Of a stretch of 64,000 nucleotides of DNA, positions 30,500 through 40,410 are shown piece after piece. The notes under the pieces are model-generated. The model was given only the letters and a program-made list of their open reading frames with translations. It did not search any database and was not told the origin of the DNA. Positions within the stretch are counted from its first letter, which is position 1, and each line of letters starts with the position of its first letter. The stretch comes from Longimicrobiales bacterium (GTDB lineage: Bacteria; Gemmatimonadota; Gemmatimonadetes; Longimicrobiales; Gaopeijiaceae): the NCBI GenBank assembly GCA_965219445.1, contig CBDCNQ010000003.1, positions 128,001-192,000 on the forward strand, given 5' to 3'. The translations under genes and the position numbers were made by a program.

Positions 30500-32831
30500 C
30501 AACGTCGCCACCTGAGACGCCACCCGAGACACCTGCTCACCGCGAGCCAGCCCTCCCGCTCATCCCATCACGCTTGAATCCCAAACGCCAGCACTTTCAT
30601 ATTAATTCCCCATCCGCTGGCGAAGCTCCTCGAACCAGTTCTGGACGATCTGGACCTGCCTCAGCCTCGACGGGTCGCTCTTGACCATCACGAAGCGCCC
30701 ATCCGGCCCGACATCCCAGTTGATGAACTGAGAGAAGTCGTAGCCACTGGCATCGAAAAGTTCTCGGGGAGGACCGGACGAGAAGGTGGGAGAGGTGCTA
30801 ACCTCGACTGCCAAAATGCGGGTGCCACTCCGATAGAATATCTCGCGCCCGTCCTTGGACCACTTCCCCTCCACACCGCCGCCAATGGAGACGGAGTGGC
30901 GGGGTCCGGGACCCGGAAACGGCCTGACGTAAACCTCCCTGGCGCCCGACACGTTGGAGTAGTACGCGACCCAGCGTCCGTCGGGTGAGAAGTTGGGAGC
31001 GGACTCGGAAGCCGGCGTAGCGAGAAACGGTGCTGAAGATCCGTCGACGAGGTTGATGACAGCCAGATCCGAGCCGTTTTCCGGGTGGATCTCGTTCACC
31101 ATGATGTGATCATCAATCGACCAGGAGGGCTGGTATTGCGGCAGAGGCCGGGCGGACGCTAACTGCGGCCCGCCGCCCTCGCGCCAACGTATCCAGTGCA
31201 GATCGCCACCGAAGGAAAACCCCAACCGCTCACCATCAGGTGCCCAGGCTAGACTCGGATGATGTCCGTCGGTCGTGAGGGGTTCCGCGCTTCCCCTCTG
31301 CAGGTCCACCATCCAGACATCAGAGGGACGGGGATCCACGATCACAGCCACCCGGTTTCCGTCAGGAGAGACGCGCGGCCAACGATAGCCTCGCGCCTCG
31401 ACCGGGATCCGCTCCTCTGAACCATCGCGAGCGACGAGCCAGAGAGACCGCTCGAAGCCTCCGGCGACATAAGCCAGCGTTCCCGTTTCCGATACGGCGA
31501 AGGCGGCTGCACTGCCGCCAGGACCACGAAACACACCTTCGAGGACCGGGACCTCCGCACCGTTTACCTCCAAGCGGTCGATGTCGAACGGCACGGCTCG
31601 TATCCGCTCTTCGCCCGCATGGAAGAGGAGATGACCAGTCGGGACATAACGCGCCTGTGTCCCATTGAACAAGAACCGCACCTCTCCGGTCCCAAGATCG
31701 AGAACACCCGTTCCCCCGATGACGCTCACCAGTGCATGCTCGCCATCCGGAAGGTGGTGCGGCCACCGTGGCTGCCCCCCCCGATCGCAGTAGAATCAGC
31801 ACCGGCTCGACCTGTTTGGTCGACCTGGGTGAGCCCAAGCGGCACGGGGTCTCCGCCTGCCATCGGTACGCGATACAGGCTGGGCCCTGCCGCGAATAGG
31901 ATCGTGTTGTCGGCTCCCCAGCTCGCTCCACGGGTCTCTCCAGATGGCAAGGGAGTGATGGTGATCGGAGCCCCACCGGATACCGAGACCCTCTGTAGCT
32001 GGCCGCTCGCGAAGAACCCCACCCACTCGGCATCCGGCGAGAAGAACGGTTGTCGCGCATCGTCCGTGCCATCCAACTCTCGCGGGGACAAGTCATCGAG
32101 CTCGCGTAAGAACAGGCTCCTGACTCCGGCCCGCTCTCCTACGTACACCAGCCGCGTACCGTCGCCGGAAATGGCCAGTGGGTGGCCAAGCCGTCCCCCG
32201 AACACTCGTTGGTCCTCCGGGAGTGAAATCTGCGTTCGAGTCACCGGCTGCCGGGGCTGCGGTCGCATCCAGCCCCACAGGACGAGCCCGATAGCGACCA
32301 CGGCCACCGCGGGCCACGCGACCATGCCCAGCCCCTGGGCACGGAACGTGGACATGGCGGCAGGTGCCGGCTCGGAGGTCATGAAGGAGGGATCTCCCAG
32401 GGCCTGCGAAAAAAGAACGGCGCTCGAAAATCGATCGGCTGGCAGCTTCTCCAGCGCCTTAGCAATCGCCGCATCTACGTTGGCCGGGACGGTCTCCCGC
32501 TGAGCGGCCGCCGACACGCGCTCACCGGCGATGATTTTGCCCAGGATCGCCTGCGGAGTGCTCCCGGTGAACGGCGGCTCTCCGACCAGCGTCTCATACA
32601 AGACGCAGCCGAGGGCGTATATGTCTGCCGCAGGACCCAGATGTTGACCGCCAGCTGCCTGTTCCGGGCTCATGTAGTGGGGCGTCCCGAGGCTCAGCCC
32701 GGTCTCGGTCAGACGACCCCCTCCCGCTCCGCCGACAGCGAGCGCGATCCCGAAGTCCGTGATCACCGGCTGACCATCGTGGATCAGAACTGGAGTTGGC
32801 CCCGCACGGTGGACGGTTTTGGACTAGAGAT

Positions 32832-33680
32832 TCACGCGGCGGGGGCGTGTTCCTTTTCGTAGTTAAGAGGAGACAATTGGCCGAGGGCAGAGTGCCGTCG
32901 GTGGGGATTGTACCAGGCTTCGATGAAGTCGAACACGGCCATCCTGGCCTCGGCCTGATTGCGGAAGCTCTTTCGTTCGATGAGTTCGGTCTCGAGCGTG
33001 GCGAAGAAGCTCTCGCACATCGCGTTATCGTACGCGTCGCCGACCGAGCCCATCGAGGGTCGGACGCTGGCCTCTTTGCAGCGTAGGCCGAAGGCGATCG
33101 AGGTGTACTGGGTACCCTGATCGCTATGATGGATGACACCGTTCGGTCGTCGTTGCTGCAGCGCCATGTTCAGCGCGTCGAGCACGAGATCGGTCTTGAG
33201 ATGCGTCTTCATCGACCATCCGACCACATGGCGGCTCCACGCATCGACGACGACTGACAGGTACAAGAAGCCGCTCCAGGTCGGCACGTAGGTGATGTCG
33301 GCAACCCAGAGCTGGTCCGGGCCGTGCACACTGAAGTCGCGCGCGACGAGATCGGGGGCAGGTCGAGCATCTCTGTTTCGCTTCGTCGTGCGCCACTTCC
33401 TTCGCCGCGTAGCGCCTTGTAGTCCTGCCAGCCTCATCAGACGACGCACCCGCTTGTGGTTGACCTGCCAGCCGTCGTCCCTGAGCTCGGCGTACATCCG
33501 TGGCTGGCCATACGTCTCACGGCTGAACGTGTGGATCTCACGCATCCGACCTAGCAGTCGCTCGTTCTCGACCGCGCGATGCGATGGAGGACGCTTTCTC
33601 CATGCGTAGTACCCGCTGGGCGAGACGCTCAGGACTTCGCACATCATCTGCACGCTGAACTCGGCCTGGTTGGCCCTCAC
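32832..33680 (-). CDS. IS3 OrfB (rve integrase core)
   Basis: WVADITY, HHSDQGTQY, DNAMCESFF, YN..RRHSALG. Confidence 0.93.
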   Translation of the reverse strand: MRANQAEFSVQMMCEVLSVSPSGYYAWRKRPPSHRAVENERLLGRMREIHTFSRETYGQPRMYAELRDDGWQVNHKRVRRLMRLAGLQGATRRRKWRTTKRNRDARPAPDLVARDFSVHGPDQLWVADITYVPTWSGFLYLSVVVDAWSRHVVGWSMKTHLKTDLVLDALNMALQQRRPNGVIHHSDQGTQYTSIAFGLRCKEASVRPSMGSVGDAYDNAMCESFFATLETELIERKSFRNQAEARMAVFDFIEAWYNPHRRHSALGQLSPLNYEKEHAPAA

Positions 33681-33991
33681 GAACTCGAACGCTTCGGGGG
33701 CACCGAGTCGGACTCCTGAGCGAACCAGGCCGCGGCTTTTTTTAGGATCTCCCGCTCGACACGAAGCCGCTTGTTCTCACGCCGAAGCTCGCGGAGCTCC
33801 TCGCGCTCTGACGACGTCAGGCCGTCGCTTCTGACTCCCGTGTCGAGGTCCGTCTGCTTCACCCAATTGTGGATCGTCTGCGCTGTGGGCTCAAACTCCC
33901 GACTCAGCTCCTCAGGCGTGCGACCTGCTTTGACCAGCTCCACCATCTGCTGGCGGAACTCCAACGAATACGGCGGTCTCGTTCTTGGCAT
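33677..33991 (-). CDS. IS3 OrfA (HTH); A7G slippery site for -1 frameshift at ~33743-33736
   Basis: YSLEFR...ELRELRRENKRLRVEREILKKAAAWFA; AAAAAAAG on the minus strand. Confidence 0.92.
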   Translation of the reverse strand: MPRTRPPYSLEFRQQMVELVKAGRTPEELSREFEPTAQTIHNWVKQTDLDTGVRSDGLTSSEREELRELRRENKRLRVEREILKKAAAWFAQESDSVPPKRSSS

Positions 33992-34324
33992 CGTGGACTC
34001 CTCTCTCTAAAGAGAATAGGTGTCCACCGTCAGGGGCTAACTCCAAACGTTACCGGGCTTGATGTCGCGATGAATTACGCCTTGGCGGTGTGAATAGTCG
34101 AGGGCCTCCGCCATGTTCGTGGCGATCCGCACTGCTACGTCCACTGGGAGTTGATGAGAGCTAGGATCAAAGGCATCATAGGGGCATGGCGACCGCTACC
34201 GGTACCGATCAGCAGCGAAGCAGCCCGAAGACGAAGAGGCGTTCTCCTCCGGGAGCGGGTGCGCGTTCATCATTATTCGCGCAAGCAAGCAACCCAACCC
34301 GTCCTACCCAAGAGGAGGATGCCG

Positions 34325-35379
34325 ATGGAGAGGTATATCGGACTCGACGCACACGCGTCGAGCTGCACGCTGGGGATTGTAGGCCCCAGCGGCAAGCGCT
34401 TGGGCTCGCAGGTGGTGGAGACGAACGCGCGGGCGCTGATCGAGGTGCTGCGAGGGATTCCGAGGAACCGGCACTTATGCCTGGAAGAAGGGACGCTGTC
34501 GGGGTGGCTGTACGAGGTGCTGAAGCCGCACGTGGAGGAGCTGACGGTGGCGGGGGTCGGCAAGAGCCGGGGCCCGAAGACCGACAAGCTGGACGCGTTT
34601 GCCCTGGCGGAGAAGCTGCGGATCGGATCACTGGAGACGACGGTCTACAAGAACCGGGGCCAGTTCAGGCGGCTGGGGGAACGGGCGAAGAGCTACGACT
34701 TCTTGGTCGGCGACACGGTGCGGGTGAAGAACCGGCTCAAGAGCGTGCTGCGCTCGAGAGGAGTGGCCTACGGCGCGGGGCGCTCGGTCTACTTAAAGCG
34801 CGACCGGGAGGAGTGGTTGGCCAAGCTGCCGGAAGCGAGCAGGACGACGGCCGGGTTGCTGTACGAGGAGCACGACGCACTCGTGGCATTGAGGGCGAAG
34901 GCCGAGAAGGCGTTGCTGGCGGAAGCACGCAAGCATCGAGAGTGGCATGTGCTGAAGACGTGCCCGGGTCTGGGTCCGATCCGGACGGCGGAGCTCCTGC
35001 CGGTGGTGGTGACGCCGTACCGGTTCCAGAGCCGGAGCAGGTTCTGGGCGTACTGCGGACTGGGCGTCGTGATGCGGAGCTCGTCGGACTGGGTGCGGGG
35101 TCCGGGTGGGCGGTGGGTAAGGGAACCGGTACAGCAGACGCGGGGGCTGAATCGGAACTTCAACCACACGCTGAAGCGTGTGTTCAAGGGCGCAGCGACG
35201 ACGGTGATCGGTCGGGCCGAGGACGAGCCCTTGTACCGCCACTACGAGCGACTCCTGGAGGGGGGCACGAAGCCGAATCTGGCGAAGCTGACGATCGCGC
35301 GTCAGCTCGCCTCGATCGTGCTAGCGGTGTGGCGCACGGGCGAAGCGTACGACCCAAGAGACTGGAAGCGACGGAGTAA
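34325..35379 (+). CDS. IS110 recombinase copy B (CCC instead of CCCC at 35353 shifts the last ~7 codons)
   Basis: Near-identical to 22963..24018 with several substitutions (E/K, R/T, N/D); the copy-A stop corresponds to TAA 35377-79. Confidence 0.88.
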
Positions 35380-35439
35380 ACCGGCCTGGGATCGGCGAGC
35401 GTGGGGTCGAAAGCGGTCACAACATGGGGTCCGACGAAA

Positions 35440-35660
35440 CGGAAGCGAACCGGTTACAGGGGACAGCATCCATACACACCGTGGGCCGGGGCAGAGAGCC
35501 CAAGCCCCCACTCAAAGGCTATGCACCCCTGGAGAGCCGAACGAAGCGATGGGCCACAGAGTCCCAGATAGAAGGATGGTTCCCGCTCCAGAGCGGAGAA
35601 CGCGACGGCTGTGAACGTCTTCCGGACTGCGATGCGGACCCTGCGAGCGCACCCCTCCCC
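35440..35660 (+). ncRNA. Predicted bridge/seek RNA in the IS110 3' non-coding region (mirror copy at ~22680-22900 on the minus strand); boundaries approximate
   Basis: TACACACC (35473-80) and TCAAAGG (35512-18) match the target halves and face each other in a stem-bounded internal loop; ATAGAAGG (35568-75) matches the donor junction. Confidence 0.72.
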
Positions 35661-35864
35661 ACCCTGAGTCGTCGACCGGGCAATCCAAACCATGCGGACG
35701 CCGACGGTCAAAAAATGAGCCGACGGCGCGTGGGGAAGGTGCGTCTTGACCGCCAGCCCCATAGAAGGGTGTGTAAAAAAAGAGGCGACGTACCTTTCCG
35801 CTAGGTAGTAAGAAGTTAACCAGCGAATCCCGGGTGAGCGCCCGGGGGAAAGGAACGATGCCTC

Positions 35865-37109
35865 GTGAGGAAGAATATGGTGGGACCCGAGAGTGAGTCC
35901 AGCACGCCGACGTGGGAGTGCTTGGAAGCGCTGGTTCGTGAGAAGGCCCAGGAGATGGTCCAGCGGATTCTGGAGGAGGAAGTGACGGAGTTGCTCGGCC
36001 GGGAGAAGTCGGAGCGGAAGACGGTCGTAGACCCGGCGCCAGGCTACCGCAACGGCTACGGCAAGGCTCGGCGGCTGGCGATGAGCTCGGGCACGATCAT
36101 GCTCCGACGGCCCCGGGTTCGAGGCATTGAGGAGCGGTTCGAGAGTCGGGTGTTGCCGTTGTTCGCACGACGGACGAAGGAGGTGGGTGCTCTGCTTCCG
36201 GAGCTGTATCTGCACGGGCTGGCGGAGGGAGACTTCGAGCTGGCGATGCGGGGCCTGCTGGGCGAGGGGGCCCCGTTGTCGAAGTCTTCGATTTGGCGGC
36301 TGCGGGCGGGATGGACAAGGAAATTCGAGGAATGGTCGAAGCGCTCGCTGGCCGACCGTGAGGTCGTCTACGTCTGGGCGGACGGGATCTACGTGAAGGC
36401 GGGGCTCGAGCGGGACAAGGCAGCGCTGCTGGTGGTTCTCGGTGCGATGCGAGATGGTACGAAGGAGGTGTTGGCCCTGAGATCGGGCTACCGAGAGTCG
36501 GTCGAGTCCTGGTCCGAGGTGTTGCGGGATCTGAAGGCACGCGGCATCGAGGCGCCCCGGCTTTTGATGGCGGACGGCAACGCGGCGATCTGGGGCGCAG
36601 TACGGCAGGTATGGCCTGAGGCGGGCGAGCAACGGTGCTGGAACCACAAGATGAGGAACGTGCTGGACCGGCTGCCTCAGCGGGAGCAGAGCGAGGCGAA
36701 GGACCTTCTCAGGACCGTGGTCTACGCACCGAGGCGGTCCGAGGCGCTGAAGGCCCGTGAGGCGTTCGCCAGGCGCTACAGACCGTGGTATCCGAAGGCG
36801 GTGGATGTACTCGAGGACGACTGGGAGCGGATGGTGGCGTTCTACGACTTCCCCGAGGACCACTGGAAGCATCTACGCACGACGAACGTGGTCGAGAGCC
36901 CCTTTGCCGCAGTACGGCTCAGGACAACGGCGGCGAAGCGCTTCAAGCGGGTCGAGAGCGCTACGGCGCTGATCTGGAAGCTGCTCTTGGTGGCGGAGAA
37001 GCGCTTCAGAAGGCTCGACGCTCCTCACCTCCTCAAGGACGTATTTGAAGGAAGAAAGTTCGAAGACGGAAAGCCCGTCTCAACCCAACAGCGGAAAAAC
37101 GCCGCCTGA
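35865..37109 (+). CDS. IS256-family DDE transposase copy B
   Basis: Translation identical to 21233..22477. Confidence 0.95.
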   Translation: MRKNMVGPESESSTPTWECLEALVREKAQEMVQRILEEEVTELLGREKSERKTVVDPAPGYRNGYGKARRLAMSSGTIMLRRPRVRGIEERFESRVLPLFARRTKEVGALLPELYLHGLAEGDFELAMRGLLGEGAPLSKSSIWRLRAGWTRKFEEWSKRSLADREVVYVWADGIYVKAGLERDKAALLVVLGAMRDGTKEVLALRSGYRESVESWSEVLRDLKARGIEAPRLLMADGNAAIWGAVRQVWPEAGEQRCWNHKMRNVLDRLPQREQSEAKDLLRTVVYAPRRSEALKAREAFARRYRPWYPKAVDVLEDDWERMVAFYDFPEDHWKHLRTTNVVESPFAAVRLRTTAAKRFKRVESATALIWKLLLVAEKRFRRLDAPHLLKDVFEGRKFEDGKPVSTQQRKNAA

Positions 37110-37138
37110 AACATTTACACACCTATTGACCCAACCTC

Positions 37139-38256
37139 GCCGTGCCCTGTCGAGGTTCCTGGGGTACGGACCGTTCTTCTATACCGACTAGCGGCTCACC
37201 GTTGGTGCGATCGAGGATGTACACCCAGCCTGTTTTGCCCGCCTGGGCCAATCCTTTACGTGGCACGCCGTCGTATTCCAGATCAAACAAGACCACAGGG
37301 TTAGGCGCATCATAATCCCAGATATCATGATGCACCTGCTGAAAGTGCCAGCGGTACTCACCGGTGTAGGCATCCAGTGCCACGATGGACGCTGTGAACA
37401 GGTTGTCCCCGGCACGCACCGCTCCGTTGTAGTCGGGCCCGGGGTTGCCGGTCGAAAAGTAGATCATGCCCAATTCAGGATCCACTGCAGGCGTGTGCCA
37501 CACAGTGCCCCCGCCGGTTCGCCAGGCATCGTTGTCAGCAGGCCAGGTATGATGACCGAATTCGCCCGGGCCTGGCACGGTATGGAAAGTCCACAGCAAA
37601 CTGCCGTCGGCCGCACTGTAGGCCTTCACCCGCCCTCTTGCTGCAAATTCTGCACCCGCGAAGCCGGTAATCACCATGCCGTTGAAATACAAGGGAGCGC
37701 TGGTGATGGTATACCCTTCTTCCCAGGCTTCGGCCTGGATGGACCAGACCTCTTCACCGGTCTCCATATCCAGCGCCTTAAGCACGCCATCCAGCTGTCC
37801 GACAAAGATTTTGTCTTCGCCAAATCCCACACCGCGACTGGTCCATCCACAACAGACCGTCGAAATTTCATCATCAAGATTTGCCCGGTAGCTCCACAAA
37901 ATTTCACCGGTTTCAATGCCCAGGGCGAAGACATCGTCTGCACCGGTTACGACATACATGACCCCTTCGTGGATGATGGGCTGCGCCTCACCTGAATACT
38001 TCGCGCCGACCCCAGACTCGTCGAGATGAGTACGCCAGACCGGACCAAGTTGATTGACATTGTCCGTGTTGATCTCCGTCAATGCTGAGAAGTTTCGGTT
38101 GAAGAGGTCCCCGCCGTTGGTCAGCCAGTCGGCCGTAGGCAGTTCCGACAGCGTCTCTTCATCCGGTCTGACCTGTGAAGATTCAGCGGCATTTGCTGTC
38201 AGCGAGGAACACAGGACAAGTAGTCCTGCCAAAAGGTTAGACGTATGTCTATGCAT
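37139..38256 (-). pseudogene. N-terminal half of the quinohemoprotein alcohol dehydrogenase split by IS256
   Basis: Signal peptide; VCCGWTSRG; STGNPGPD; VHHDIWDYD; breaks at VPQEPRQGTA|IS end. Confidence 0.9.
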
Positions 38257-38982: not shown

Positions 38983-39210
38983 CGTTCTACCTCCCTCCTC
39001 AAGACGAGGCGTTCGGCCAAATCCTGCTTGGCATCTTTTCTACAAGGCGTCCGTCCGTTCGCTGACGGGAGCGTCCGCAACGATTACGACTCCGTAGGTC
39101 GCGGCGTCACTCGGGGCGCGCTGTTCTCGGGGAACGTAAAGGTGGTCCCTTTTGGGTGCCAGGGGACACGAGCCAAAATACTTGTACCAGTGGGCCTGGG
39201 TAGACTTGAA

Positions 39211-40410
39211 CTGTTCGGCTTGAGCGTTCACGGATTCGAGAACGTTGGTCGTCTTCAGCGAACGGCCAACCAGCGGGAACACGCCGAGTCGATGCAGGGT
39301 CAACGTCTCCTCGAACCCTTCGTCCAGGCTTGCAACCGCCGACTGGTTGAGCTCGTCCAGCTCAGCCCGCATCGCTTTCAGGTCCCGCTTCGCCTCCTCG
39401 TAGGTGGGCCGCTCGTAGGCTCGCTGCAGACGTCCACACCAGGCCTTCTGCTCGGTGCGTGGCAGGTACGAGACCACATTCTCTCGCTTGTGCCATTGGC
39501 AGCGCTGGATAAGCACCTGGCCCCGGAACACCGTCGTCACTGCCGACTTCAGCCCCTTGGCGCCGTCGATCACGACCAGCGCTCCGGCCGACAGATCGAG
39601 TCCCCGATCCTTCAGGGAGCGCAGAAAGCTCGTGATCACCCGGGCGTTCTCCGTTTCCGTCTGCACGAATCCCGCAAACACCTTGTCTCCCCCCATCGTC
39701 ACGGCTAACGCGACGACGATTTCGTCATTGGCAAACGTCTTGCCATCCAGGAAGAGCGCCACGACGTCGAGCTCCGTAAGCTCACGTTCCTGAAACGCCT
39801 TCAGCTGCCTGGCGGTCGCCTTCTTGAACTCCCGCGACACCGTCGACTTAGACAGCCCGATCGCCCCCGGCACTGCCTCCACCGCGGCCTCATAGTCACG
39901 ACACGAGATCCCAAGCAGGACCTTGCGGAACAACCCCTCGTCCACCTCGCCCGCCGCCCAGTGCAAGCGCTCGTACGACTCCAGACGCGCCTCTCCCTCC
40001 AGACCTCGCACCCGAGGGACCCGGACCGGATGACGCTGCCCGCCCAGGCGTACCGAGCCCGGGTTGCTCCCATGCCGGTAGATCACTTCTCCTTCTCCCT
40101 TGCGGGCGTGCCTCGGACCCGCCAACCGCTCGACCTCTTCGTCCAGCACCCGCCCCACCTCCGCCAGCCCAAGCGGTATCAATTCCTGGATCAATTCCAC
40201 CCGCATCTCGGTCCTCAGCGCCTCGATCGCTTCCCAGTCCAGCTCACTCGGCGCACCCATCCTTCGGTCCTTCTTGCCTCGACGTACAAGCTGTGGCTCT
40301 CTCTCCATTGGTGGCCTCCTTCCTCTCATGGTTCGGTGTTGTGTTCCTCACACCCACCTTACCCGAGGTCGGAGGTCACTTCAAATTCCAACTAAACTTA
40401 GGACACCCTC
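39211..40410 (-). mobile_element. Second, unrelated IS256-family element, 3'-truncated
   Basis: End GAGGGTGTCCTAAGTTTAGTTGG at 40410; transposase motifs LFLDGK, VIDGAKGL, QRCQWHK, TTNVLES, then loss of similarity near 39211. Confidence 0.85.

Follow-up and report, generated by a model that had tools for sequence, protein, structure and literature searches.

The stretch of Longimicrobiales DNA analysed here (64,000 nucleotides in all, hereafter the window) contains the right end of an IS110-family insertion sequence, in which a copy of the element's own end, ATAGAAGG at 35568-75, is likely to be the left donor guide, and whose two ends would, once joined, create a promoter of the form TTGACC-17-CATCAT. 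We put the probability of this reading at roughly 0.85. Donor guides and junction promoters are established features of the IS110 family, so that the mechanism is not a new one and the finding in itself was to be expected.

An IS110-family element with an IS1111-like layout

The element occupies 34173..35767 on the forward strand, with a DEDD transposase/recombinase gene (34325..35614, +) that is preceded by 152 nt and followed, counting from the stop codon of the 351-aa frame, by about 390 nt of non-coding DNA. A profile search with the reading frame starting at 34325 returned both PF01548 (38.9 bits, cut-off 29) and PF02371 (31.7 bits, cut-off 21.3), which bears out the family identity put forward in the original prediction, whose quoted motifs (TTGACC, the 17-nt spacer at 35752-68, CATCAT, AAGG, ATAGAAGG, GATGC and a gapped repeat) also all sit where it had placed them. 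Residues D8, E54, D87 and D90 of the transposase were assigned by motif position, and S253 aligns with the SG of IS621. Genome G000 has 24 starts of the gene, 17 of them with the 351-aa frame. The window copy is without one C near 35352, which extends its frame to 429 aa, and since this C is present in all seven of the non-RNA Logan runs examined, the longer frame is to be read as a local frameshift or an assembly error.

In our view the element belongs to the IS110 family, taken in its broad (ISfinder) sense. It combines a DEDD RuvC-like N-terminal domain with the PF02371 C-terminal domain, inserts in a site- and orientation-specific manner without target duplication (23 filled IS256 left ends, with the empty allele elsewhere), and has structured non-coding loops that match target and donor, as judged from sequence and covariation only. 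Two features are those of IS1111 elements, namely the long non-coding region 3' of the gene and a top-strand target match (35473-80) lying 5' of the bottom-strand match (35512-18). Two others are not: the sub-terminal inverted repeats fall short of perfect or near-perfect repeats of 11-13 bp, and a protein of 351 aa with GLGVVMRSSS at 245-254 takes the place of a transposase of 330-350 aa with GL-P----S(t)G, a motif that we took from the available part of PMC11187229. Because repeat quality and this motif were both tested and both differ, the element is not filed in the IS1111 subgroup.

Rearranged copies also occur. At G000 C5:1611126-1613245 and at L005:3600-4100, a right end is joined inside the element's own transposase gene, the 3' part with the RNA being duplicated, and in G004 three right ends of the element follow one another at 458-bp steps.

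The target is the left end of an IS256-type element

The flanks of the element are the two halves of a split end of an IS256-type element, which the original prediction had missed. The outer part of the host's left terminal inverted repeat (34158..34172, +) forms the left target half, its last two bases, AG, being the likely core. The rest of the host (35768..37138, +), split off by the IS110 element, consists of the inner left repeat, a Mutator-family transposase gene (35865-37109, +, within the 34158-37138 host) and the right inverted repeat (37114-38). It is because the element sits in this left inverted repeat that matches among copies run beyond both of its proposed ends.

In G000, 23 IS256 left ends are filled by the IS110 element, always at one base and in one orientation, and none of the 29 right ends is filled. 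Another five left ends of this genome are empty (C4:199262(+), C4:1221680(-), C5:267938(+), C5:483712(-) and C5:635832(+)); all five are altered within the 13 guided bases, each differently, and the intact target has no occurrence in G000. Two of these five finish in GAAG, as does the element's right end, and could be scars of imprecise excision. Intact empty left ends number 50 in other genomes (5 in G001, 1 in G003 and 44 in G005), and the same pattern search, which also admitted four of the five G000 variants, found no empty left ends in G002 and G004. These 50 uninterrupted ends confirm the pre-insertion allele. The 44 intact targets of G005 stand alongside one full-length copy with an open 351-aa frame, so that saturation is not general and filling is not automatic.

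Two copies have other surroundings. A 95%-identical relative at L009:2330-3960 lies behind the outer part of the right, not the left, inverted repeat of an IS256 element; its left target guide is shifted towards the right-repeat sequence, with one mismatch, and its right flank is not IS256, which indicates that the site has been rearranged. At G000 C2:336726 (+), a copy occupies a non-IS256 site, where the left guide matches more bases and the register of the right guide is shifted by one. A literature search at the level of titles and abstract openings returned no paper on IS110/IS1111 elements aimed at IS256 ends, although the ISfinder tables in the supplements of PMC11187229 and PMC11208160 could include one.

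The surroundings hold further mobile DNA. A triple nest is present at G000 C4:1169770-1171666 (-), where a group II intron, which has a frame of some 500 codons that resembles a reverse transcriptase and includes YADD, lies in the IS256 left repeat, four bases past the IS110 element. The 5' end of this intron has 13 occurrences in G000, several of them behind hairpins and T runs, presumably the kind of site that is used by class IIC introns. In the window itself, a protein-kinase gene (31726-34157, -) appears to be interrupted both by the IS256/IS110 composite and by an element of the IS3 family (32832-33991), and a second Mutator-type transposase is encoded at 39040-40329. The IS256-type host has an outward TTGACC in its right repeat (37127-37132 of the window) and a TAGGAT in its left repeat (34162-34167), which a circle spacer of 6 nt would place 17 nt apart. 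IS256 elements form junction promoters.

A predicted two-loop RNA with target and donor guides

The comparison started from 78 loci, of which an anchor search retained 45 with the RNA region, in 35 distinct versions. The alignment has 32 rows, made up of 31 versions and the window (L001, L016, L034 and L047 were omitted as near-duplicates, and L054 stands for its twin L053); a right end is present in 30 rows, a left end in 23 and both in 22, and 28 could serve for the right target guide. A consensus fold computed from 22 sequences has 29 pairs, 15 of them with compensatory change, and agrees with the single-sequence fold in giving two stem-loops with internal loops, at 35457-531 and 35534-582. 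An Rfam search returned nothing beyond one chance match (E=0.87), and RNA run X20 gave a 286-nt piece of the transposase gene only (34408-34693), the guide region being without cover.

The first predicted stem-loop (35457..35531, +) is a target loop that had escaped the original prediction, just upstream of the range it quoted, and that spells the left inverted repeat of the IS256-type element. Its putative right target guide, TACACACC (35473..35480, +), complements the right flank at 8 of 8 positions in the window, and its putative left target guide, TCAAAGG (35512..35518, +), equals the left flank. Both track the flanks across relatives. Over 23 elements, 131 of 138 positions of the left guide agree with the flank of the same element (shuffled 75±5), and the right guide, scored in 28 elements, agrees at 117 of 224 positions in the window's register (shuffled 71±7) and at 166 of 224 in the best of three registers (shuffled 96±7), the match being poor in some rows, such as L027 (3/8). 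A register of 35475-82 for the right guide was discarded, with 53 of 224 positions and a score no better than shuffles.

The second stem-loop (35534..35582, +), which the consensus fold draws as an outer stem, an inner hairpin (35551-64) and two unpaired strands, is the predicted donor-binding loop. Its 3' unpaired strand carries ATAGAAGG (35568..35575, +), for which 0.005 occurrences are expected by chance in the 366-nt non-coding region. When the first seven bases of this candidate left donor guide are compared with the right end of the same element, 207 of 210 positions agree over 30 elements that span 39-100% protein identity; shuffling the pairs yields 179±3, and a value of 207 was not attained once in 20000 trials. 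The seventh and last of these bases is mismatched in 3 of the 30 (L025, L043 and L061). Relatives share letters, so that independent changes counted on a tree weigh more than the raw match. A tree of the 30 transposases (close relatives only, 12 of 27 inner branches well supported) gives about six independent matched changes in guide and right end: A>G in the L024/L059 clade and again in L079, A>G in L015 as compared with its sister L013, the C of the acidobacterial clade, CTGG in L062/L075 and G>A in L041. Match, independent changes and position in an unpaired strand all support the original proposal that ATAGAAGG acts as left donor guide.

The right-hand guide that had been proposed with it, GATGC (35631..35635, +), did not survive. 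Chance alone would give 0.35 occurrences, and 3 of 32 rows retain it, those of the window and of its two 95-97% relatives. It is also situated past the conserved RNA, on what must be the wrong side because the target loop carries its top-strand match first; we consider it a chance 5-mer. The folding and covariation check that had been suggested for this region does reveal a conserved donor loop at 35534-582, but leaves GATGC outside the conserved block.

By the order seen in the first loop, the right donor guide should precede the left one, at about 35540-50, in the 5' unpaired strand of the donor loop (35540..35550, +). All 32 rows share AGC (35545-47) and T35550 in this strand. GATG (35548-51), which complements CATC, was not adopted as a simple 4-bp right guide, attractive though it looks in the window, since only 12 of 22 elements retain it and the donor side scarcely varies (GCATCAT or GCATTAT). 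A possible partner for the invariant GC in 35540-50 is the GC, likewise invariant, with which the left end begins, and pairing in IS621 is described as discontinuous in the part of PMC11208160 available to us. An isolated, 89%-identical piece at G000 C5:1023334-1023423 consists, as far as the RNA is concerned, of the donor loop only, and its flank is also found as a separate contig in runs X1, X3, X4 and X9.

Ends, core and the joined-end promoter

AAGG stands at both junctions (34170-73 and 35765-68) and had been taken for a 4-nt core. Among the 22 elements with both ends, its four positions have an identical base at both junctions in 2, 22, 17 and 14, which leaves the first A common to both in just 2; the G preceding CAT is found in all 23 left ends, while 19 of 30 right ends have a G at the corresponding position. 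This variation disfavours both AAGG, which is partly a coincidence, and GG as the core. The shared core is likely to be 2 nt long, AG in this element and AA or AC in relatives, and on the simplest reading of the junction variation the crossover would fall between 34172 and 34173 at the left and between 35767 and 35768 at the right. The circle junction predicted with the revised core is identical in sequence to the one originally proposed.

Sub-terminal inverted repeats had been reported as GGGGC(A)TGGCG (34181-91 and 35751-60), imperfect but real, since left and right match above shuffles across relatives. Comparison of the two sides sets them at 34178..34191 (+, imperfect in the window copy) and 35751..35762 (-). 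In this family register, the two repeats of 22 elements agree at 164 of 220 positions (shuffled 128±6.5), and in the shifted register first proposed they do so at 99 of 154 (shuffled 67±7); the window has 5 of 10 without gaps, and 12 of the 22 elements reach 8-10 of 10. PMC11187229 attributes apparent duplications in this family to ends that were wrongly placed, and states that 7+3 bp lie outside the repeats. Here, the circle form would have 10 nt between repeats, which split 7+3 only if the left end is taken to include the AG core.

The predicted junction promoter consists of the -35-like hexamer TTGACC (35746..35751, +), which points outward from the right end, and the -10-like hexamer CATCAT (34174..34179, +), which matches at 4 of 6 positions, and it is directed into the transposase gene. 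The TTGACC-17-CATCAT layout claimed for the joined ends is conserved among relatives: a TTG[AC] hexamer lies at a constant distance from the end in 30 of 32 rows (TTGACA in 14 of the 30; the other two rows end at contig edges), and left ends read CATCAT in 18 and CATTAT in 5 of 23, counts that are biased upward because both motifs served as search anchors. With a gap of 8-10 allowed, the distance from the -35 hexamer to the end was constant in every right end found. A promoter scan of the linear region detected no sigma-70 site at 9/12. The claim that the pair exists only in the circular form stands as regards the element's own -35, but this copy has in its flank a TTGATG (34151..34156, +) that lies 17 nt 5' of the -10 box and agrees with TTGACA at 4 of 6 positions. 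This flank is peculiar to this copy, the only one of 25 G000 left ends with at least 4/6, and weak activity from the integrated copy is possible on these grounds.

A search for the junction itself had two outcomes. Joined ends of the window's element were found neither in G000, nor in the eight Logan runs searched out of 24, nor in the 401 genomes of the phylum sample, assembled contigs being prone to drop rare forms, but a scan of a metagenome collection gave one match (a joint in 1 of 79 loci). This relative, L079, with 63% protein identity, is a metagenome contig that ends in TTGACA-17-CATCAT at the predicted crossover; it is a single contig with only 16 nt past the joint, and a tandem pair would look like a circle.

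Proposed mechanism and competing explanations

The scheme that we favour would have five steps. (i) An RNA-bound DEDD recombinase would excise the element as a circle, cutting around the 2-nt AG core, (ii) the junction promoter would drive a single transcript comprising the transposase gene and then, 1.1 kb downstream, the RNA (co-transcription of gene and RNA from such a promoter being a proposal made in the available part of PMC11187229), (iii) the first loop would pair with both strands of the IS256-type left inverted repeat, top-strand match first, (iv) the second loop would pair with the circle junction by means of ATAGAAG(G) and of a short, probably discontinuous right guide in 35540-50 and (v) recombination would result in insertion at one base and in one orientation.

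It could instead be that the target loop suffices for insertion, much as the 82-nt seekRNA of ISEc11 is said to be sufficient for movement in the part of PMC11187229 available, with the protein recognising the ends at the sub-terminal repeats and the second-loop match serving excision or being dispensable. Such a division of labour would sit well with left and right repeats that match across relatives beyond shuffles, and with a candidate right donor guide, GATG at 35548-51, that fails to track the donor (12/22). We nevertheless think it quite unlikely, because some six independent matched changes in guide and end need base-level selection on the match itself, and the stem of the donor loop shows compensatory changes. 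The original prediction in its full form, with a 4-nt AAGG core and a donor loop that has ATAGAAGG as its left side and GATGC (35631-35) as its right, strikes us as very improbable. Both motifs are present, and the five bases with which the left end starts are exactly complementary to GATGC, yet a 5-mer expected 0.35 times by chance, kept in 3/32 rows and lying past the conserved block makes a poor guide, and a core whose first A is common to both junctions in 2/22 elements makes a poor core.

The copies might also derive mainly from an IS256-plus-IS110 composite moving as a unit, which would bear on copy number and not on the guide. In 13 composites with the main host type (three with divergent or mosaic hosts being left out of the comparison), there are 13 haplotypes among the IS110 parts, with 11.6 substitutions per pair, as against 3 haplotypes and 0.6 substitutions per pair for the IS256 parts. 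The IS110 element also occurs in hosts of two subfamilies and at a single unrelated site; the contrast in haplotypes and the variety of hosts favour repeated insertion. Exact flanking duplications of 8-9 bp, which border 7 of the 19 composites with both ends, speak for movement of the composite, but are predicted equally if the IS256 element moved first. The flanks of the window's composite (34150-34157 and 37139-37146) differ from each other and match flanks of the copies at C4:1220295 and C3:152179, which indicates rearrangement between copies. Flank swaps among copies, that of the window included, point to recombination, which could also shuffle a few founder alleles and so weakens the argument for repeated insertion. 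Repeated insertion is still what we favour, and movement as a unit appears unlikely as the main source of copies.

The value of the family is that it provides a clean natural data set for covariation between donor-loop guides and DNA in an element with a downstream RNA, published work having stressed the target loop. It also offers a collection of compact recombinases, available at once, whose guides are read out and whose cores are AG, AA or AC, and its filled and mutated IS256 ends make transposon-on-transposon parasitism testable. Tentatively, and with rather more doubt than confidence, the family may be viewed as a natural experiment in which elements with a downstream RNA and a reversed order of guides still read their own end by a reprogrammable donor loop, while being engaged in an arms race with their IS256 host. 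If true, the arms race would be reflected in every intact G000 left end being filled, in the five survivors being mutated and in the guide of the sister copy L009 being re-aimed at the host's right end.

Comparison with known systems

The comparisons that follow are confined to the portions of PMC11187229, PMC11208160 and PMC13626964 available to us. The closest parallels are with the IS1111-type elements ISEc11, ISKpn4 and ISPa11 (PMC11187229), which have a DEDD transposase with a long downstream non-coding region, seekRNAs with the top-strand match 5' of the bottom-strand match, a promoter formed by the abutted ends, as is predicted here, 10 nt between the repeats of the circle (split 7+3 in those elements) and no true target duplication. 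Unlike their near-perfect repeats of 11-13 bp, those seen here are gapped and imperfect, the C-terminal motif is GLGVVMRSSS instead of GL-P----S(t)G, and the target is an IS256 end (PMC11187229). A second loop that matches the donor can be read here, and the available portion of PMC11187229 assigns none to these three elements.

It is IS621 that offers a counterpart to this second loop, its bridge RNA having two internal loops, target then donor (PMC11208160, PMC13626964; PDB 8WT6). Predicted features likewise shared with IS621 (PMC11208160) are guides that each span a 2-nt core, a junction promoter and a short right donor guide, which is discontinuous in IS621. The two systems part ways in that the RNA of IS621 lies in its left end and the one predicted here 3' of the gene, in that the guide order in the target loop is reversed here, and in that the promoter here would reach the RNA only through the gene (PMC11208160). 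At the protein level, likeness to IS621 is weak (E=0.019).

As regards the choice of target, IS4321 and IS5075, both of the IS1111 type, reportedly enter a terminal inverted repeat belonging to a different transposon, their host being of the Tn21 family, whereas the host here is an IS256/Mutator-type element. ISEc21 is a further RNA-guided insertion sequence with a target inside another insertion sequence, but it has an upstream non-coding region and the opposite guide order, and it is aimed at the transposase genes of the IS3 family, not at an end (PMC11187229). Overall, the element would work as an IS1111-type seekRNA element equipped with an IS621-like second loop.
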